A program made the position numbers and the translations under genes. From the NCBI RefSeq assembly GCF_053078305.1, contig NZ_CP166879.1: a stretch of DNA of 64,000 nt. The stretch is one strand, 5' to 3'. The first letter of the stretch is position 1. Every line of letters starts with the position of its first letter. Shown one piece after another: positions 1-30,935 of the stretch. The notes under the pieces were generated by a model. It searched no databases. It was not told the DNA's origin and was given only the letters and a program-made list of their open reading frames with translations.

Positions 1-935
1 GCCTTTAGCCAGGATTCAATAAAGTCGGCCTGGCTATAGATCTCCGCAAGCTGCTCAATGGTTAACAGAGGTACACGTGCGCTGGCATTGGTGATTATTT
101 CGCTGACAGGCTTTGTCAGATCTTCAAAATCGCTGGCCGCTGTTTGTAAATGCTGCATTTTCTGGGCAGTGCAAATAGCTTTTGCTTTACAGAAGCGGCA
201 CTGTTTTTCTCCAGGTATGAAGTTTTCCAGCGGTAGTGTCTCAATGCCTTCGCATTCAGCAATATTGAGAACAAGGATCGCACTGGTTGCGGCCTCCTGT
301 GCCCGTTCACCGAAAGACTGAAGTTCCTGTACGGTTAACGACCATTCTGAAACGTGGTTGAGCCTTGGCTGGTGAATAAATAATCTTACAGTCTCAAAGT
401 CATACAGCATGCTGAATTGTTCGAGCGCACCCAGAGCATACAGTTGTAGTTGCTCATTTTGTTCTGCATCAATGCGGACGCCTTTGCCATATTTCAGGTC
501 GTGGATTTGTAATTCGTTACCAGCGATGATTATGCCGTCGGCAGTTCCGAAAGATTCTTCCACCCCCGTTATATGTGAGAAATCAACACGTTGTTCAACC
601 AATAGTTCATTATTCTGTGCAAGAGTCCAGACCGTATCAACATACCGGCCAACGGCTTCGACCATTTCATCATCCACCTGTGGGCCAGATGTATCATCAG
701 GATTTTCGCGAAGGGGGTATGAGCCGAGAAACATAGAAACATTGCATCCGGCGTAGTGTTCCGGGTGGCTTTGCCTGTTTCGTAGAACTTTTTCAGCAAG
801 CGCGTGCGCTGCAGTGCCCTCGATTGCAAAAGTTGTTTCTTTATCCGGTTGTGTGGCCTCCAGCGCCAGACTTCCTGGGCAGCGCATCCATCGATGCGCT
901 GATGATGGAGAAAGTTGTGCATGAACGTCTGGCAT
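1..935 (-). CDS. PD-(D/E)XK / Cas4-like phage exonuclease (DUF2800-like from memory). The 3' end lies beyond the window edge.
   Basis: This ORF is absent from the ORF track because it has no stop inside the window. I checked every minus-frame codon from ATG 935 down to base 3 and found no stop (311 codons). The translation is [22 protein letters not shown]...[23 protein letters not shown]...[13 protein letters not shown]. It shows a D...(D/E)xK nuclease motif and a C...CxxCxxxxxC cysteine set. GGAGGG lies 6 nt upstream, and the start is 3 nt after the stop of the upstream gene. Confidence 0.75.
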
Positions 936-937
936 GA

Positions 938-1840
938 TTAACCCTCCAGTGCTTTTTCAGCCAGGGTGATTACTTCAGCGAGATTTTCATCCGTTACTTC
1001 ACCAAGTTTCCTGGCTCCCTGTTTTTCCAGAATTGCAATAGCTTCTGCCCGGTAACCCCCTTTTGCTAACTGGAGGATCAACCCTTCAGCTTGTTTGCGT
1101 AGTGCCGCGAAATCAATTGTATGGTCATCTTTGGCGTCATTATTCTGGCTGGAATTTGCTGCGTCTCTGCGTGCAAATTCTTCCTGCAGCTGAAGGTACT
1201 CAACACGGTTGATCTCGATATGGCCTTTTTTAAGCATCTCGTTCAACTTGCGTAAGGTGTGGAGTTCACTGGCTGCTGTGCCGGATACATTTTTGACGTA
1301 AAACGGCCCCGTGCGTTCTCCATCTTTGTTACTGGCCTTTTTCGGCTTAACTTCATCACGCCCATCTGCAGGTGCATCAAGTAGTTGCTCGGCAAAAGCA
1401 CGTCGCTCGCCGATGGTTGGCAGGTCGTCCCAGAACTTAAGAATGTTACGGGACAGGTCCAGAAGAGCGGGTTTATGCAGTGCCCTGGCTCGTTTGACGC
1501 CCTGCAATGCGCTGTCGAGAGCATCAATCTGAACTACTCGTTTATCGCCTTCAGCATCACGGTAGGCAACAGCACGTTGCAGCATGTCTTCTGTGATAGG
1601 GGTGGCTACCGGGTAGAAACCAGCCAGTGCGATAACGTCGCTGAACTCCAGATCATCCAGTGTCATTGCCGCTGACATATTTTCAGTTTCAGTTGCTGTA
1701 TCCCGACATTCCTGCACTCGTGAAATCGTGTCAGGATGCATAACAATACCTGATGCCATTGTGCGGATAAGACGTTCAAGCAGCGCATTATGTTGTGCCA
1801 GAAGTTGATTATTAAGTTCGAGACTGGTTTCTAAACTCAT
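938..1840 (-). CDS. Hypothetical early-left phage protein, 300 aa (acidic, helical), function unknown
   Basis: A long ORF on the same strand as, and tightly packed with, the downstream nuclease gene. Its start ATG overlaps the stop of the upstream small ORF (ATGA). I recognise no motif. Confidence 0.6.
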
Positions 1841-1986
1841 ACTGTGGTCCTCGCAACAAGGAGAATGAAAGTGATGATCAGACCGAGCGCAGTGGCAACG
1901 GCCAGACCGGTCATCAAATCGAAGTTTTTACGGCGATAACGGAGAACATCGCGCCCCGTCAGTCGATAGAGGTGTTCAGGTTTCAT
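1837..1986 (-). CDS. Small membrane protein, 49 aa (below the ORF-track cutoff)
   Basis: Hand translation gives [49 protein letters not shown], with one clear hydrophobic helix. AAGGA lies 8 nt upstream. Its stop overlaps the next start (ATGA), suggesting translational coupling. Confidence 0.4.
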   Translation of the reverse strand: MKPEHLYRLTGRDVLRYRRKNFDLMTGLAVATALGLIITFILLVARTTV

Positions 1987-2045
1987 CGGTTGTATTCCTT
2001 TTTTCATATCGGGGAGCGCGCTGTTGCGAGTGCGCTTTCAGACAT

Positions 2046-2071
2046 AAAAAAGCCCGTCACTTGCGGCGGGC
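2046..2071 (-). terminator. Rho-independent terminator downstream of the zinc-ribbon gene
   Basis: The minus strand reads GCCCGCC-GCAAGT-GACGGGC followed by TTTTTT. Confidence 0.55.
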
Positions 2072-2102
2072 AAAGACTACACACAGCAATTACATGGATG
2101 AT

Positions 2103-2297
2103 TCAGTTGGTATTGTGCGTACGTGGTACCACAAGGTTGAAGCGGACACGCCAGTGCGTTGCAATGGTATGCAGGAAAGCACCACATCCAGGGCAGTGCT
2201 CATAACATTCGTTGATTTGGTATCGTTTTGGCTTTGGTGTCTGAAGCTGTGTTTGGCAAGCAGGGCATTCACCTTTGAGCGGTTTATATGTTTTCAC
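2103..2297 (-). CDS. Small zinc-ribbon protein, 64 aa (two CxxC pairs)
   Basis: GTG start with GAGGA 6 nt upstream. CPAC and CPGC motifs lie 27 residues apart. A terminator follows. Confidence 0.55.
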   Translation of the reverse strand: MKTYKPLKGECPACQTQLQTPKPKRYQINECYEHCPGCGAFLHTIATHWRVRFNLVVPRTHNTN

Positions 2298-2580
2298 GCC
2301 GTTTCCTCATTCAGTTCACTTTGGTGGTTCGGCGGCTTCGACTTGTATCAGTAGGCAGTGCTTCGCCGCACCCCAAAGGGAACTTACTGACCCGTATTGC
2401 CGACATCCTGTCCCGCCACGGTCCCGACGCATGGTTTAGAGTCGCGCCGTTCGACTTGTGGCTAAAGATACAATTTGAGTTGTATTGTGTAAACCACAAA
2501 CGTGGTATTTTGTGGGGTGTGAATACTACTTTATTGATATTTAAGTGAATTTAATTTGTAAGACTTTACAAATGGGGTAA

Positions 2581-2600
2581 GGGAGGCTGTTACGCCTCCC
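2581..2600 (-). terminator. GC-rich stem-loop just downstream of the repressor gene (weak terminator candidate)
   Basis: GGGAGGC-tgttac-GCCTCCC is a perfect 7-bp stem. There is no strong U-tract on either strand. Confidence 0.35.
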
Positions 2601-2619
2601 GATATTTACGGTGGGAATA

Positions 2620-3243
2620 CTAACGTTTACGGCGGTAAATACGGTGTTCGATCATTACACCTATGATCTGTAAGTTCATATCTGCACTACGAAAAATAGG
2701 GTAATCAGGATTTAGGGGGATTAATTCAAAGTCGTCGATGCCGATTCCTAATGGACGGTATTTTTTAAATGTAGCTTCGTGACCGTCGTTTTTGGCGACA
2801 ACAAACTCCCCTGGTGCAGGACATAGTTCAGGATCGATGATAACAATGTCTCCTTCTTTAAACTCTGGTTGCATGCTGTCGCCATCAATACGTAATGCGA
2901 AGCATGTTTCTGGAATGTCAGAGTCTGCCAAAATATATTCAAATTCCCCTGTCAGATCTGTTATGTCTCTTGCTTCTGTAAGCTCTCCTGCCTGAACGTA
3001 ACTTAATATAGGTATGCGTCTGGTACTTATCTCCGCGAGAGGCATAATATTTTTACCGTTCAGTAGCCAGTCTGGGCTACATTTCAAGGCCTTAGCCAGA
3101 TCCAGAAGATTGCGTGGCTTTCTGGTTCGTCCACTTTCGATGGATTCTATGGATTGTTGGCTAACCCCTGCAGAATTCGCTACTTCCACTTGAGTCATTC
3201 CTAATTCCAAACGACGTGCTTTAAAACGGGCTGCGAGAGACAT
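2620..3243 (-). CDS. CI-like prophage repressor (XRE-type HTH plus S24 LexA-like autopeptidase domain)
   Basis: The N-terminal HTH is MTQVEVANSAGVSQQSIESIESG. The C-terminal S24 signature is IDGDSMQPEF with a downstream FKKY lysine. I chose ATG 3243 (MSLAARF...) because AAGGA precedes it. The track start at 3294 adds 17 unlikely residues. The gene is divergent from a cro-like gene. Confidence 0.85.
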   Translation of the reverse strand: MSLAARFKARRLELGMTQVEVANSAGVSQQSIESIESGRTRKPRNLLDLAKALKCSPDWLLNGKNIMPLAEISTRRIPILSYVQAGELTEARDITDLTGEFEYILADSDIPETCFALRIDGDSMQPEFKEGDIVIIDPELCPAPGEFVVAKNDGHEATFKKYRPLGIGIDDFELIPLNPDYPIFRSADMNLQIIGVMIEHRIYRRKR

Positions 3244-3363
3244 GGGATTAGTCCTTCTGGGTTGTATTAATGTGTATACCCACATTAAAAACAATTTTTG
3301 TTGTATTTGACAAACCTCATTTGTTGTTGCTAAATACCACTAAAATTGTATGAGGTGAAAGCA
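3244..3363. promoter_or_regulatory. Immunity switch region: divergent promoters and candidate operators
   Basis: TTGACA (3307-3312), an 18-nt spacer and TAAATA (3331-3336) face cro. There is a 22-bp palindrome TTAATGTG-N6-CACATTAA at 3267-3288. GTTGTATT is repeated at 3261 and 3300. Confidence 0.5.
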
Positions 3364-3576
3364 ATGACCTTAGCGACCCGAGTAAAAGAACGACGTAAAG
3401 AACTCAAAATGACGCAAGTTACGTTGGCTGAGCTCACAGGAGTGAGCCAGCAGGCAATAAACAGAATTGAAAGTGGTGTTATTGCTCGGCCACGTTATCT
3501 TCTTGAAATGTCTATAGCATTGGATTGCGACCCTAATTGGCTGTTGTATGGCTCACAAAACGATAAAAAGGCTTAA
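3364..3576 (+). CDS. Cro-like HTH regulator
   Basis: The HTH is MTQVTLAELTGVSQQAINRIESG. GAGG precedes ATG 3364. The gene is divergent from the repressor and is first in the rightward operon. Confidence 0.75.
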   Translation: MTLATRVKERRKELKMTQVTLAELTGVSQQAINRIESGVIARPRYLLEMSIALDCDPNWLLYGSQNDKKA

Positions 3577-3579
3577 CCC

Positions 3580-5772
3580 ATGTCCGATAGCAAACCATGG
3601 GGAGCTACGCCTGATGAGTGGTTTCATTTCGACCTGGTATTGGGGAGAACTGATCATCTTCTCCCAGTTGTATGTAACCCCGGTGCGACCATATCCCCTG
3701 ATAGTAAACTGAAAGCGCTGGGTAAGACGCCAAGTCGCTATAACCGGGACCGCCAGGTCACCGGTATTGCTCAATGGACCGGGTATGTTGTTACTGAGCA
3801 TGATTTTGCCCGCTGGTCGAATGAACCGGATTATGGCATCTGCGTGCGTACAGGCCATGGCTGGCTGGCGCTGGACGGCGATAGCGAAGATGAAGACATT
3901 CAGGCAGATATTCGCAAAACGCTTGTGCAACTTCTGGGGGAGTTGCCGCCGCGACGCTGGCGAGCAAACAGTAATAAGTGTCTGTATCTGCTGGCCGTTG
4001 ATGGTGATTTCCGTAAGCGTATCCATCGCCTGGCGGGGGATATGGGCATTATCGAGTTGCTGGCGAACGGGCAGCAGTTCGTTGCCTGTGGTACGCACAG
4101 CAGCGGCGCGCGTATTGAATGGGACGGTGGTTTGCCGGATGAACCTCCGGCTATTACTGGTGAGCAGCTTGAAACGCTGTGGCAGCGCCTGGCTGAACAA
4201 CTCCCTGTGTCGGTAACCACCGAAGCGGGCAACACGAAGATGCGCGACCGATCAGCATTCACGCCCGGCGCGACGGATGATACAGCTGAATATCTTGATG
4301 CCAATGGCTGGACGCTGCTGGATGGCGCAAATGGTGAACGATATATCCGCTGTCCGTTTGAAGACGGCCACAGTAGCGGGGGCGATCCAACAAGCACAGC
4401 TTATTTTCCTGCGGGAACCGCGGGCTTTGAGCAGGGGCATTTTAAATGCCTGCATGCCAGTTGTGCGCATCGTGATGACGGAGATTTCCTTAATGCCATC
4501 GGGATCCGCAACGACGATTTCGAAGATCTGACCAGCACCGAAGTGGCGGAACCTTTACCGCTGCCTGCTTTCGAGCGTGATAAATGGGGGCGTATCGAGG
4601 CAACCATCAGCAACGCAGCCAAAGCAGTAGTACGCCCTGATTTTGTGGACATCGATATTCGCTTTGACCAGTTCCGCGACGAAATCATGTTTGCCTCTGC
4701 AGGATCCGGACAATGGCGAGCATTCACCGATGCGGATTATGCGCGCCTGCGCATCACGATGGAAAAGCGGGGATTTAAACCTGTTGGTCGTGAACTTATT
4801 CGCGATGTGGTGTTACTTGCAGCCGATGAACAACCATTCGATTCAGCGATTACCTGGCTGAACGGGCTGGAGTGGGATGGCGTGCCGCGCATCGAATGTT
4901 TCTACCATACGCACTTCGGTACAGCCGACACGCCTTATACCCGTGCGGTGTCTATGTACATGTGGACCGCGTTGGCGGGGCGAGTACTGGAGCCAGGCAT
5001 CAAAGCGGATATGGTGCCGATCCTCGTTGGTCCGCAGGGCTGCGGTAAGTCTTCCGGAGTGGAGGCACTGAGCCCTGATCCTGCGTTTTTTACTGAAATC
5101 TCTTTTGCCGAAAAAGACGATGATCTCGCTCGAAAAATGCGTGGTCGGCTGGTGGCAGAGATTGGTGAACTGCGCGGACTTAATACCAAAGAGCTGGAGT
5201 CAATCAAAGCGTTTGTGACGCGTACTCACGAAAACTGGATCCCGAAATACCGGGAGTTCGCCACCCAGTTTCCTCGTCGCCTGGTGTTCGTTGGTACCAC
5301 CAATGAGGACGAATTCCTTGCGGACAAGACTGGTAACCGTCGCTGGCTCCCCGTGGAAGTGTCGAAAGTCGACGTGAAAGCGATAAAAAGAGATCTCCTT
5401 TTACTTTGGGCTGAGGCTCGTGAGGTGTTTCAGCGTCTGGGGGGTATCCAGTTCCGTGAGGCTGAACAACTGGCAGCGAGTGTCCATGAACAGTACACCA
5501 TCAAGGATGCTTGGCTTGAAACGGTAGAGAAATGGCTCGACACGCCAGACCTGATGACTAATGAACTTCCGCGAAATTGCGAATTTTTACGCGCAAGTGA
5601 TGTTTTGCGTGATGCGATTGGGCTAAATCCTGACCGCATCGGAAAACGCGAAGAAATGCGAATTAGTAATGTTTTGCAAAATTGCGGGTATAAGCGTGTC
5701 CAAAGGCGAATTGGGGGGAAAATGACTCGAATTTTTGAGGCGGTGTCCCAACCTGTACCAGCCTCAAAATAG
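3580..5772 (+). CDS. Replication protein: primase-polymerase N-terminal domain, Cys/His zinc motif and VirE/P4-alpha-like P-loop NTPase
   Basis: 730 aa. Contains CPFEDGHS...FKCLHASCAH and the Walker A motif GPQGCGKSS. It sits directly after cro and before an iteron cluster. Confidence 0.8.
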   Translation: MSDSKPWGATPDEWFHFDLVLGRTDHLLPVVCNPGATISPDSKLKALGKTPSRYNRDRQVTGIAQWTGYVVTEHDFARWSNEPDYGICVRTGHGWLALDGDSEDEDIQADIRKTLVQLLGELPPRRWRANSNKCLYLLAVDGDFRKRIHRLAGDMGIIELLANGQQFVACGTHSSGARIEWDGGLPDEPPAITGEQLETLWQRLAEQLPVSVTTEAGNTKMRDRSAFTPGATDDTAEYLDANGWTLLDGANGERYIRCPFEDGHSSGGDPTSTAYFPAGTAGFEQGHFKCLHASCAHRDDGDFLNAIGIRNDDFEDLTSTEVAEPLPLPAFERDKWGRIEATISNAAKAVVRPDFVDIDIRFDQFRDEIMFASAGSGQWRAFTDADYARLRITMEKRGFKPVGRELIRDVVLLAADEQPFDSAITWLNGLEWDGVPRIECFYHTHFGTADTPYTRAVSMYMWTALAGRVLEPGIKADMVPILVGPQGCGKSSGVEALSPDPAFFTEISFAEKDDDLARKMRGRLVAEIGELRGLNTKELESIKAFVTRTHENWIPKYREFATQFPRRLVFVGTTNEDEFLADKTGNRRWLPVEVSKVDVKAIKRDLLLLWAEAREVFQRLGGIQFREAEQLAASVHEQYTIKDAWLETVEKWLDTPDLMTNELPRNCEFLRASDVLRDAIGLNPDRIGKREEMRISNVLQNCGYKRVQRRIGGKMTRIFEAVSQPVPASK

Positions 5773-5773
5773 A

Positions 5774-5925
5774 GGTTGGTACATTTTAACTAATTGAATT
5801 TAAAGGTCAGTACCAACTGTACCAACTGTACCAACCTAATTACTAAGAACCCCATATATATATATAAGTCGCTTGGGGAAAAGGTTTGAAAAGAGCTGGT
5901 ACAGGTGGGTACAGGTTGGTACAGG
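5774..5925. repeat. Iteron cluster flanking an (AT)n tract; candidate phage replication origin
   Basis: GTTGGTACA is at 5775-5783. Three tandem 9-bp repeats (A/T)GTACCAAC span 5809-5836. ATATATATATATA is at 5854-5866. Three GGTACAGG repeats with 10-bp spacing, in the opposite orientation, span 5898-5925. Confidence 0.55.
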
Positions 5926-6053
5926 CCGAACAAGGAATTTTTTGCACATAACAGCGTGTAATAAGCGAATCGGAACTGCGTTATCCACACCCACGGATAA
6001 ACAGACGTGGTTCTCAGAAAATTTTTTCGTAGCAAAACGTAGAGGTCAGAGCT

Positions 6054-6476
6054 ATGCGTAATATTCAACAGGTTTTAGAGCGCTGGGGTGGCTGGGCAGC
6101 GAGTGAAGGTGGTAGCGTCTACTTTCCTCCTGTTGCAGCCGGGTTTAAGAATCTGCTACCCGCGACGCAGTCTGGAAGGCTGAAATGCAGTGACAATGAC
6201 GGTCTTATCATCAACTCCGCTATGAGCTGCCTGAAGAAAAAAGATCCGTATCTGTGCACGCTCCTTGAGTGGCATTACGTCCAGGCCATGCCCGTGCGGG
6301 CGATGGGTGAGAAGCTCGGCGTATCTCACACCCACGTTCTGAAGAGGCTTCAGGCGGCAGAGGGATTTATTGACGGTTGCTTAGCCATGCTGGATGTGGT
6401 GCTCGAAATGGATCAGTCGGTTCAGTCAAAGCCTCAGGCTATCAGGACTTTGCGTAGGAGCTGCTCGGCGGCATAA
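6054..6476 (+). CDS. Late-gene antiterminator Q (phage 21/82, QuuD-like type)
   Basis: MRNIQQVLERWGGWAA...AAGFKNLL...CSDNDGLIINSAMSCLKK...KRLQAAEGFIDGCLAMLDVVLEMD matches my memory of the lambdoid Q / QuuD family. It lies upstream of a terminated leader and the lysis genes. Confidence 0.75.
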   Translation: MRNIQQVLERWGGWAASEGGSVYFPPVAAGFKNLLPATQSGRLKCSDNDGLIINSAMSCLKKKDPYLCTLLEWHYVQAMPVRAMGEKLGVSHTHVLKRLQAAEGFIDGCLAMLDVVLEMDQSVQSKPQAIRTLRRSCSAA

Positions 6477-6507
6477 TATCCAGCAATCAATCACGTAAGG
6501 GAACCAG

Positions 6508-6684
6508 ATGGCTCTGATCAGCGTTCGCAACAGATTTGAAAGCTTCATGGAACAGAGGTACCCAGACCTGTCGTTGCAGGTCAAAGGTAATATTGGCGCA
6601 TCAATGAAGGCCCAACTTGGCATCGGATTGAACGAGAATTGTACAGTGAAGATGTTACTTACTGTGATTCAGCAGTTCAGTTGA
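6508..6684 (+). CDS. Small hypothetical ORF, 58 aa (below track cutoff)
   Basis: Hand translation gives MALISVRNRFESFMEQRYPDLSLQVKGNIGASMKAQLGIGLNENCTVKMLLTVIQQFS. Its stop overlaps the next ATG (TGATG). Confidence 0.3.
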   Translation: MALISVRNRFESFMEQRYPDLSLQVKGNIGASMKAQLGIGLNENCTVKMLLTVIQQFS

Positions 6685-6848
6685 TGTGGACACTCTTTCA
6701 GGCAGGTGTTCTGGCCGAACGAAGAGCTACCAGCGTTACGCTTCCTGCGCTGAAGGCAAAGCCGGATAGCTTCTACGATGCGGGTTATAACGAAGGTATT
6801 CAGGACTGTCGTAAACATCTGACGGCATCAGGCATCAAGGTAAGATAA
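6684..6848 (+). CDS. Small hypothetical ORF, 54 aa
   Basis: An ATG internal to track ORF 6639..6848 (which starts at TTG), coupled to the preceding small ORF. Confidence 0.3.
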   Translation: MWTLFQAGVLAERRATSVTLPALKAKPDSFYDAGYNEGIQDCRKHLTASGIKVR

Positions 6849-6915
6849 AAAATAGTTGTGGAATTCCAAAAAGCCGATTAGCCTGATATCTGTTGAAAAC
6901 AGTTCATCACGAAGA

Positions 6916-6940
6916 GGCTTCCGCAAGGGGGCCTTTTTTA
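6916..6940 (+). terminator. Rho-independent terminator ending the early-right (Q) transcription unit
   Basis: The stem is GGCUUCC / GGGGGCC (7 bp, two G-U pairs). It has a GCAA tetraloop and a T6 tract. Confidence 0.7.
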
Positions 6941-7169
6941 TTGCCCCATTCTGGGGAAAAGTTAATAAAACAGGGCTTTCGCTGCGAAAAAACGCTATGC
7001 AGTTTTTGCCCTTTTTTATGCACCTTTTATTCACTCGAATTTCGTCATTCTGGACCACTTAAGTTGATTAAATAGGCCTTTCATCGCAAATCTATTGCGA
7101 GCGGGGATCGTGTGGTTCCTATAACGTACATTATGTTAAATAACTTCCTTTTTTAACAAATTTAACAAG

Positions 7170-29885: not shown

Positions 29886-30533
29886 CTATGAAGCTAATTT
29901 GTTTAATTTCATTTGTAGTGACTTTACTTCTTGGTCGATAATGTCGAATCCCTTATTGACAGCATCTCTTAGCTCTGCATCAATATTTTTTATCCCTTGA
30001 GCATAATCTACCATTATATTTATTTTTGCATCATGTAATCTCTTATACATGGTTTTATTTTTGTTATTGTCTGCCATGCCAATAAGGATTTTTTCATAAT
30101 CCTCAATGAGTTTGTTGTTTCCTTTAAATGATTGTATTAATGAGCGTGAATATGTGTATATGTTAATTATTGAGTCTCTAGCAGAATCATTTAGTTTTGC
30201 AATGACATTCGCATTTTGCTCATAGAATGTGAAATTATCATCCCCTACAGGGAATGTGAGAATCAACATTTGTCCCGGTTTTATATTATCAATGTGTGTT
30301 TTCATCCTTTTATTATATAAATTGATTAGGGTGAAAACTTCTCCCTTAACTCCTTTTAATACTGAAAGTTGTAATTCAAGGGATTCTCTTTCTGTCTCTA
30401 CTTTAGACAGCTTAGCTTGTTGGGTAACTCCTTTTAGGGTAAACCATCCGCCAATAAGAGTACCAACTAGAGCTGTGAGGGAGGAGGATAACCATCCAGG
30501 TATGCTATTTAAAAGATTACTAAATTCACTCAT
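29886..30533 (-). CDS. Membrane-anchored coiled-coil protein, 215 aa (cargo, function unknown)
   Basis: N-terminal hydrophobic helix LSSSLTALVGTLIGGWFTL, then QQAKLSKVETERESLELQLSVLKG, then an Asn/Lys-rich C-terminal domain. Very low GC (14 G+C in 30001-30060). Confidence 0.6.
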   Translation of the reverse strand: MSEFSNLLNSIPGWLSSSLTALVGTLIGGWFTLKGVTQQAKLSKVETERESLELQLSVLKGVKGEVFTLINLYNKRMKTHIDNIKPGQMLILTFPVGDDNFTFYEQNANVIAKLNDSARDSIINIYTYSRSLIQSFKGNNKLIEDYEKILIGMADNNKNKTMYKRLHDAKINIMVDYAQGIKNIDAELRDAVNKGFDIIDQEVKSLQMKLNKLAS

Positions 30534-30593
30534 TATAAGTACTCGCTAATATTGAACGATATATATATATCAAATTATTATAAAACTCGTCAG

Positions 30594-30935
30594 CTACTGG
30601 AGAAGGCTACCTGAACTTCGATCTATTCCTGCATCCATATAGTTGATGGTCTTCTGGAGCTCTTCGATTAGGGCAACAGCTTTTGCTCGAGAAATGCATA
30701 TTAGTTGATCCGGAAATTCTTGTAAGGGCCAGTTTGGTATACAGGCCATGTTATCAATGAAGGATGCAGACAAGTAAACTTCATTGGTAACCAGAGAATA
30801 GCTTACCTCAAAATTGGTGAGTTCCGGCAAACTGCTAACGTTTGACTCTTTTCTGCGCATAATATTATCCATGACTGTAATTATGTACAGGTGATGGTCT
30901 TCAATTTCGAAGAGGGAGTCAAGGGGGAGTCTCAA
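30594..30935 (-). CDS. Small acidic protein, 92-113 aa (cargo, function unknown)
   Basis: Low-GC ORF upstream of, and co-oriented with, the 215-aa gene. The start is ambiguous (TTG 30935 or ATG 30872), and neither has a good SD. Confidence 0.45.
   Translation of the reverse strand: MRLPLDSLFEIEDHHLYIITVMDNIMRRKESNVSSLPELTNFEVSYSLVTNEVYLSASFIDNMACIPNWPLQEFPDQLICISRAKAVALIEELQKTINYMDAGIDRSSGSLLQ

Follow-up and report, generated by a model that had tools for sequence, protein, structure and literature searches.

A candidate replication origin of the SaPI/PICI type at the 3′ end of a primase-helicase gene in a temperate Escherichia coli prophage

In SaPI origins, 6–12 iterons lie directly downstream of rep around an AT-rich centre, with at least two iterons per side in opposite directions, and they are bound by a winged helix in the C-terminal domain of SaPI Rep; binding and melting are ATP-independent, and Rep loads itself without a separate loader (PMC9371898). 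The SaPI1 Rep initiator-helicase has been seen bound to dsDNA in structure 7PDS (PMC9371898). Gram-negative PICIs have the same organisation, a plasmid can replicate in E. coli from the EcCICFT073 rep-ori fragment, and the pri-rep-ori layout has been considered exclusive to PICIs (PMC6092414, where P4 alpha and its ori are also mentioned). The preliminary description of the DNA studied here set its layout apart from that of lambda O, and this contrast holds, the closest model being the SaPI/PICI Rep-ori or P4 alpha. P4 alpha unites primase, helicase and a C-terminal origin-binding domain in one polypeptide and uses short 8-bp repeats in both orientations; its primase is of the DnaG/TOPRIM type, and P4 needs a second distant site, crr. 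The lambda iterons lie inside the O gene, and O, which is not a helicase, needs P and host DnaB. Iteron plasmids (pSC101, F, R6K, RK2, pPS10) have direct repeats of 17–22 bp on one side of the unwinding element, and their initiators recruit host DnaB.

In this study, we analysed a 64-kb stretch of DNA (the window). With a probability of roughly 0.85, positions 5744–5925 would be a replication origin of the SaPI/PICI pri-rep-ori type in a temperate E. coli prophage that has an APSE-like replication module, a reading that rests on sequence and its comparison among relatives.

The locus resembles the SaPI/PICI systems (SaPI1, SaPIbov1, SaPI5 PriRep, EcCICFT073) in its homologous helicase (7PDS, E=7e-34), in the fusion of the primase to Rep as in SaPI5 PriRep, and in a putative origin directly 3′ of rep with opposed iteron sets flanking an AT-rich region (PMC9371898, PMC6092414). 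A C-terminal winged helix, here predicted only, is the proposed reader, and Rep and origin specificities match (PMC9371898, PMC6092414). Unlike these satellites, the host of the present element is a complete temperate phage with its own DNA polymerase and structural genes. Its iterons measure 8–9 bp, where those of the satellites are penta- or hexanucleotides; it has an additional 2+1 set across the rep stop codon, and its central AT tract is a short (AT)n. With P4 alpha, the locus shares a single-polypeptide primase-helicase with a C-terminal domain (predicted to be origin-binding here) and short 8-bp repeats in both orientations. However, the N-terminal domain matches Prim-Pol (AEP) and not TOPRIM, the P4 origin-binding domain is not among the top structural matches of the C-terminal model, and no second, crr-like iteron cluster occurs in the 64-kb window, which begins inside the prophage. 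Lambda O and ori-lambda are similar in having iterons beside an AT-rich region, in the lambdoid gene context and in that the DNA-binding part of the initiator (predicted here) and the iterons are exchanged together among otherwise similar phages, whereas the initiator here is a primase-helicase and seven of the nine iterons lie past its stop codon. Iteron plasmids share a winged-helix initiator (predicted here), iterons adjoining an unwinding element and, in this locus, a perfect DnaA box about 60 bp away (5981–5989). They differ from the short iterons found here, which form opposed arrays on both sides, and from an initiator that is itself a helicase.

The repeat element and its initiator gene

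The features of the region, in window coordinates, are as follows.

3580–5772, + strand: replication initiator gene, 730 aa, with Prim-Pol (AEP), Cys/His motif, VapE-type helicase and predicted winged helix
5485–5769, + strand: C-terminal candidate origin-binding domain (aa 636–730), a predicted winged helix
5689–5742: predicted wing (aa 704–721), with a predicted recognition helix at about aa 689–701 and a disordered tail at aa 724–730
5723–5964: candidate specificity cassette of about 240 bp (window versus E. coli 2013C-4465), comprising the last 16 Rep codons and the nine iterons
5745–5752 and 5755–5762, + strand: iterons 1 and 2 (GTCCCAAC and GTACCAGC), direct repeats within the last nine codons of the gene
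5775–5782, − strand: iteron 3, inverted, reading GTTGGTAC on the + strand
5783–5805: first AT-rich stretch of low stability, ATTTTAACTAATTGAATTTAAAG, separating the outer iterons from the left array
5810–5835, + strand: iterons 4–6, three exact GTACCAAC copies starting at 5810, 5819 and 5828 (9-bp spacing), directed at the AT tract
5850–5878: candidate DNA-unwinding element, consisting of CCCC, (AT)6A, AGTCGCT and TGGGG
5875–5888: conserved GGGGAAAAGGTTTG (family consensus GGAAAGGTTA), present with every iteron type
5895–5922, − strand: iterons 7–9 (GTACCAGC, GTACCCAC and GTACCAAC) starting at 5895, 5905 and 5915 (10-bp spacing), directed back at the AT tract

Reading the sequence over 5500–6300 places the TAG stop of the 730-aa frame at 5770–5772 and gives a set of nine GTACCAAC copies with at most one mismatch, which spans 5745–5922. 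Within 5740–5930 (191 bp) these nine matches compare with 0.117 expected (Poisson P ~1e-14), the expectation being derived from the other 39 GTACCAAC matches at the same threshold across the 64 kb. The iteron cluster is non-random, and an automated repeat search of the sequence recovered the same repeat families. The order is two direct copies and one inverted, an AT-rich stretch, three direct copies, CCCC(AT)6A and three inverted copies. Every element that had been described for this stretch was found as stated: a single GTTGGTACA just past the stop codon (5775–5783), three tandem repeats at 9-bp spacing, a 13-nt AT tract (5854–5866) between CCCC (5850–5853) and TGGGG (5874–5878), and three repeats in the opposite orientation at 10-bp spacing, which on the + strand read GGTACAGG three times over 5898–5925. 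The count of seven copies beginning at 5774 has to be corrected to nine beginning at about 5744, with the copies at 5745 and 5755 inside the 3′ end of the gene. Seven of the nine lie outside the initiator gene, as described, and two overlap its last codons. Iterons 2 and 3 form a 12-bp inverted repeat across the stop codon, and relatives carry their own iteron type at the positions equivalent to iterons 1 and 2. The conserved GGGGAAAAGGTTTG may represent the invariant half of an iteron (AGGTTG) in orphan form.

Both of the least stable stretches in the region sit between iteron sets. The 20-mers at 5783–5802 and 5851–5870 each lie about 3 sd below the window mean of −27.4 (sd 2.8): the nearest-neighbour dG is −18.85 at 5783 (rank 62 of 63,980), and a second local minimum of −18.9 occurs at 5851. 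Melting could begin at either stretch. It should be weighed against the origin reading that the central (AT)6A is just 13 bp and variable in length; the SaPI paper describes its central region as AT-rich and does not give its length (PMC9371898). The position of the (AT)n tract is invariant among relatives, and E. coli prophages that otherwise hardly differ have roughly (AT)4 to (AT)8 at 5854–5866. These changes in length are probably due to replication slippage and may tune the ease of origin melting. The left array has a period of 9 bp and the right array one of 10 bp, an asymmetry common to most relatives whatever their iteron type; in some relatives the right array has mixed 9- and 10-bp steps or four copies.

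The only other close GTACCAAC pairs in the 64 kb, at 5290/5294 and 61658/61721, are chance-like. The exact copy at 5290 lies outside the swapped cassette, in DNA that is about 100% identical in E. coli 2013C-4465; as an isolated copy that presumably does not co-vary, it is treated as a chance occurrence. GC-skew and composition profiles reflected the strand asymmetry of the two arrays and nothing further. An Rfam scan of 5500–6300 gave a sub-threshold c4-a1b1 match inside the Q gene only (E=0.22), and no known RNA accounts for the region. The two open reading frames over the repeats (5790–6068, minus, and 5873–6061, plus), suspected from the start to be artefacts, have no Pfam match, are unannotated in the seven RefSeq records inspected and are broken in relatives by frame-breaking indels (+2 and −4 nt in (AT)n, and a 1-nt deletion in Sx181).

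The upstream gene had been called a primase-helicase, and the domain matches agree with this, as does its homology to SaPI1 Rep (7PDS). Pfam matches are to Prim-Pol (PF09250, aa 76–188, E=5e-9, 37.3 bits against a curated cut-off of 22.8) and VapE (PF05272, aa 427–639, E=2e-60), PHROGs matches are to DNA primase and DNA helicase families, and 7pds_A was the sole match among all PDB sequences in a phmmer search (E=7.3e-34, aa 384–657). Between the Prim-Pol and helicase domains, a Cys/His-rich stretch noted on reading the sequence may bind zinc. The ~95 C-terminal residues belong to no Pfam family, and the C-terminal part of Rep is ~71% identical to APSE P3. An AlphaFold2 model of aa 636–730 (pLDDT 78) has three helices and then a beta-hairpin (aa 704–711 and 714–721), with the last seven residues disordered. 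Foldseek returned no match for this C-terminal model in the PDB at E<=0.001 and did not recover the P4 alpha origin-binding domain. A model of aa 380–730 had a poor ATPase core (mean pLDDT 62) and was left unused. At Rep residue 100 (window 3877–3879) the window has LALDGDSED where L003, L004, YeP4 and L008 (the 2013C-4465 locus) have LALDCDSED. This substitution lies between the aspartates that we take to be the catalytic DxD motif of Prim-Pol and, though in the active site, is probably neutral.

The C-terminal tail of Rep, VSQPVPASK (window 5743–5772), is the translation of the iterons themselves (GTGTCCCAACCTGTACCAGCCTCAAAA). In iteron types that contain TAA or TAG (GTAACCAC, GTTACCAC, TAGACAAC), the stop falls inside or just before the first iteron and Rep is 8–14 residues shorter; thus, differences in Rep length within the family seem to follow from the origin sequence as a by-product.

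Prophage context and distribution of the layout

The genetic context is lambdoid, with a cI-like S24/HTH repressor (2620–3294, minus), a Cro-like HTH protein (3346–3576), the replication gene and a Q antiterminator (6054–6476). The window begins inside the prophage (1–3300 and beyond the left edge). In a near-identical prophage of strain FDAARGOS_144, the genes of a leftward operon that lies upstream of the repressor include those for a DNA polymerase, DUF2800, DUF2815, SNF2 and VRR-NUC proteins as well as an Nmad5 nucleotide-modification protein. Several replication genes of this operon have their best phage match to YeP4 in the APSE gene table (PMC8579659). The FDAARGOS_144 prophage also encodes terminase, portal, capsid, tail, baseplate, holin and lysozyme, and the annotations of its structural genes, for example baseplate J and tail-fibre proteins, are of the myovirus type. 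Since it has its own terminase, structural and lysis genes, the prophage is by gene content a complete phage that uses a predicted PICI-type replicon, and it falls outside the definition of a PICI satellite. No tRNA genes were found anywhere in the window. An AT-rich island at about 30000–30600 holds the least stable 20-mers of the whole window and another (AT)6 at 30559; comparison with FDAARGOS_144 places it close to the right end of the prophage, with tail-fibre genes, a recombinase pseudogene and a hypothetical gene as neighbours before yfhH.

Two further elements lie between the right array and Q. Directly past the array and inside the swapped cassette, 5936–5961 consists of a T6 run and then an imperfect palindrome, TTGCAC-N8-GTGTAA. 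Relatives keep a TTGCA...TGCAA palindrome there with different arms and spacers (TTGCATGT-N4-ACATGCAA in O103 and 2013C-4465; TTGCAC-N8-GTGCAA at the equivalent site of L059). It could be a site for a dimeric protein, a hairpin in ssDNA or RNA, or a promoter element. About 60 bp from the right array, TTATCCACA (5981–5989) matches the DnaA-box consensus perfectly, as no other site in the 64 kb does; it pairs with an inverted GGATAA (5995–6000) 8 nt downstream in a hairpin of −7.3 kcal/mol. This box belongs to the highly conserved leader of the Q-gene type present in the window, is degenerate in Sx181 (TTATTCACG) and is missing where the Q module is of another kind. Host DnaA may bind it, it may contribute to an RNA structure ahead of Q, or the match may be due to chance.

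The region is present in 139 of 5,426 complete E. coli genomes, as a single chromosomal copy in every case, with ~60 of these carriers just 80–90% identical. Loci were gathered from GTDB genomes (23) and IMG/VR (80), and 13 iteron types were distinguished among 104 analysable loci. The layout they have in common consists of two direct copies at the stop with one inverted, three direct copies at 9-bp spacing, CCCC(AT)n, GGAAAGGTTA and three inverted copies at mostly 10-bp spacing. Aligned as the 8-mer NNNNC[A/C]AC, the iterons keep their last four positions (C, A/C, A, C) and vary in the first four to five. Among aligned E. coli representatives, the same architecture is built from GGAACCAC in O103:H2 strain 12009 and from GTTACCAC in Sx181; APSE-3 has the same layout with GTACCAACC, and Yersinia phage YeP4 with AGACAACCT. 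The layout extends to a Burkholderiales MAG (L014, 51% protein identity), Caulobacter phage Jess A (46% identity, iteron TGTAACCAC) and Acidovorax phage ACF1 (iteron TGTTCCTAC). A lack of conservation of the repeats in related phages would have counted against the origin as initially described. Instead, the architecture is kept in ~100 loci and the repeat sequence co-varies with the C-terminal wing of Rep.

The same repeat layout occurs on 10–15 kb plasmids of E. coli and Yersinia that encode a VapE-only protein with 38% identity across the helicase and C-terminal domain; the typing line of the collection gives no replicon type for them. Their layout lends indirect support to the idea that a rep-ori fragment would suffice for autonomous replication. 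Plasmids of this kind, non-mobilizable, 10–15 kb and VapE-only (no Prim-Pol), are found in E. coli, Serratia, Klebsiella, Yersinia and Arsenophonus. In the two that were read, pLAO97 (L113, 2650–2990) and pYe4449-2 (L114, 5240–5540), many GTTCCACCC or GTGTCAC(A/G) repeats come after the gene, then ~100 bp of AT-rich DNA and inverted repeats. These plasmids probably constitute an undescribed replicon family related to the phage origin. The prophage of E. coli SMBL (L007, NZ_CP061914.1) has the same Rep C-terminal wing and tail and the same GTACCAAC origin in a region ~97% identical, and shortly after its Q gene come stx2b, with subunits A and B, and a tRNA-Arg. The presence of stx2b beside this Rep and candidate origin indicates that the replicon type also drives a Shiga-toxin-converting phage.

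Iteron type and the predicted Rep wing

Iteron type tracks a 7-residue motif of the predicted wing, GKxxR/KxF/W, and not the remaining protein. Among non-identical pairs with at least 95% helicase-body identity and differing wings, 900 of 910 have different iterons, and 106 of 134 pairs with less than 85% body identity but an identical wing have their iteron in common, both counts being made without phylogenetic correction. Thus the window Rep is 97% identical to the O103 Rep and the iterons differ, yet a Xenorhabdus locus (L013) and an IMG/VR contig (L101), whose Rep is only ~73–77% identical to that of the window, share with it GTACCAAC and the wing GK[M/V]TRIF. A near-rule links wings ending in F/Y to CAAC and those ending in W to CCAC: 9+14 of 26 iteron-wing types obey it (Fisher p=1.6e-4, without correction for phylogeny), and the exceptions are two types, both APSE-like. 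One further apparent exception was a scoring artefact, L014 having been mis-scored for the aromatic residue.

The wing codons are only 3–50 bp from the first iteron, and physical linkage therefore contributes to this association. Linkage does not, on the sequences compared, account for nine copies changing together across 180 bp or for the same pairings recurring in distant backgrounds. The clearest case is E. coli 2013C-4465, which is ~100% identical to the window over 2600–5700 and 6000–7000 and 47–84% identical over 5700–6000. Its Rep differs by V707A, the last 16 residues (MTRIFEAVSQPVPASK versus KCKVWEPLEPRGTT) and four scattered substitutions, and all nine iterons switch from GTACCAAC to GGAACCAC. 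In the repressor, Cro and Q regions, the DNA of the two prophages matches at ~100%, and the Rep C-terminus is the only coding difference inside the swapped cassette. TerS of the window is 99% identical to that of L006, another prophage with GGAACCAC iterons. Since these genes are nearly unchanged next to another iteron type, the repressor, Cro, Q and TerS are excluded as readers of the repeats. The matching specificity of Rep and origin is seen here in comparative evidence of two kinds, the 13 types that track the wing and the near-isogenic cassette swap.

A wider interpretation is offered tentatively, and we hold it with less than even confidence. An exchangeable cassette of ~240 bp might set replicon identity across a large family of Proteobacteria phages and plasmids, a few wing residues might constitute a recognition code, and at least 13 specificities might be under diversifying selection; the PICI-type origin might then be a general phage replicon that PICIs may have acquired, and Rep may gate read-through into Q. 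It is likewise only tentative that the cassette would comprise, according to the structural model, the beta-3 strand of the wing and the disordered tail (the last ~16 codons) together with the nine iterons. Also conceivable, rather than probable, are the code pairings F/Y–CAAC, W–CCAC, Q–AGAC (Q being at the first variable position) and K–GTCCC or K–GGAAC. Possible pressures are the avoidance of cross-talk or of origin hijacking among co-resident prophages, satellites and plasmids. If the gating were true, origin-bound Rep would link the expression of late genes to replication.

Alternative readings, mechanism and meaning

The reading of the repeats as initiator-binding iterons with an unwinding element, proposed at the outset, is favoured by every available comparative test, and other functions have to be weighed against it. 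Rep-binding sites could be chiefly regulatory, for autoregulation of rep, for copy control by handcuffing or as a roadblock gating read-through into Q (6054), and such roles can coexist with an origin. Transcription from cro-rep to Q indeed has no other apparent route than through the element, a promoter scan found no sigma-70-like + strand promoter within 5773–6053, and iterons 1–3 straddle the rep stop codon. We nevertheless regard a chiefly regulatory role as unlikely: opposed arrays around an AT tract meet a need of helicase loading and not of an operator, small VapE plasmids have the same arrangement without a Q gene, and in the homologous SaPI/PICI systems this arrangement is the origin itself (PMC9371898, PMC6092414). 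The inverted pair at 5754–5783 could also be an intrinsic terminator or an mRNA-stabilising hairpin that ends rep, to which the other repeats would be secondary. The hairpin of iterons 2 and 3 is strong (−20.5 kcal/mol as folded RNA) and is followed by TTTT, so that it could act as a terminator, a point that has to be set beside the origin reading; the terminator scan reports a 12-pair stem with 6 GC pairs and then TTTTAA, and relatives preserve the hairpin through changes on both arms. Such changes are expected anyway, since both arms are iterons, and the T-run is missing in the O103:H2 variant (CCTTGCAG instead) and in the APSE variant (CTATTAAATA instead). With 3 terminators in the region against a shuffle expectation of 3.4, and with six further copies and opposed arrays left unexplained, termination as the primary function is quite improbable.

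Intergenic repeat arrays are also typical of operators and pac sites, and the repeats might bind another phage protein as repressor/Cro operators, as a Q-binding element or as a pac site for the small terminase. The cassette swap described above speaks strongly against this: the repressor, Cro and Q regions of 2013C-4465 and the TerS of L006 are conserved next to a different iteron type, and Rep alone changes its coding sequence in the cassette. We give such a protein very little credence. It is hardly credible at all that the element is a non-functional hypervariable tandem repeat or a recombination scar. Length polymorphism of (AT)n and the position of the region at a mosaic boundary would fit this, but repeat number, orientation, spacing and position are conserved in phages from Gamma- to Alpha- and Betaproteobacteria, and all copies within a locus change in concert.

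For the origin reading, a mechanism can be proposed for the prophage because of its homology to, and identical geometry with, the SaPI/PICI systems. After induction, the rightward early transcript (cro, then rep) would yield Rep, whose predicted C-terminal winged-helix domain would bind the iterons. The conserved iteron half (C[A/C]AC, often then CT) would probably be read by a conserved element of Rep and the variable 5-bp half by the variable wing (GKxxR/KxF/W). The opposed arrays would set up a pair of Rep hexamers, facing head to head, around the AT tract, and Rep would melt the tract and load itself as helicase without a separate loader. Primers would be made by the Prim-Pol domain and extended by the family-A DNA polymerase of the prophage itself.

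No earlier description of this origin was found in the literature (VapE with iterons, pYe4449-2, APSE origin), a search of incomplete coverage that leaves novelty unproven; two APSE comparative-genomics papers, one of them PMC8579659, do not describe the origin. The layout held to be exclusive to PICIs (PMC6092414) is, judging by gene order and repeats, shared by small plasmids and by complete phages from three classes of Proteobacteria, and this bears on the source of satellite replicons.

The most interesting by-product of the analysis is the exchangeable cassette of 16 residues and nine iterons. The window and E. coli 2013C-4465, a near-isogenic pair that is essentially 16 residues and nine iterons apart, provide a ready-made system for studying how the wing of a winged helix reads DNA and for building orthogonal replicons. 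For the biology of the family, the analysis gives a precise candidate origin for a widespread, unannotated group of enterobacterial prophages, whose close relatives include the APSE phages that underlie defensive symbiosis in aphids.
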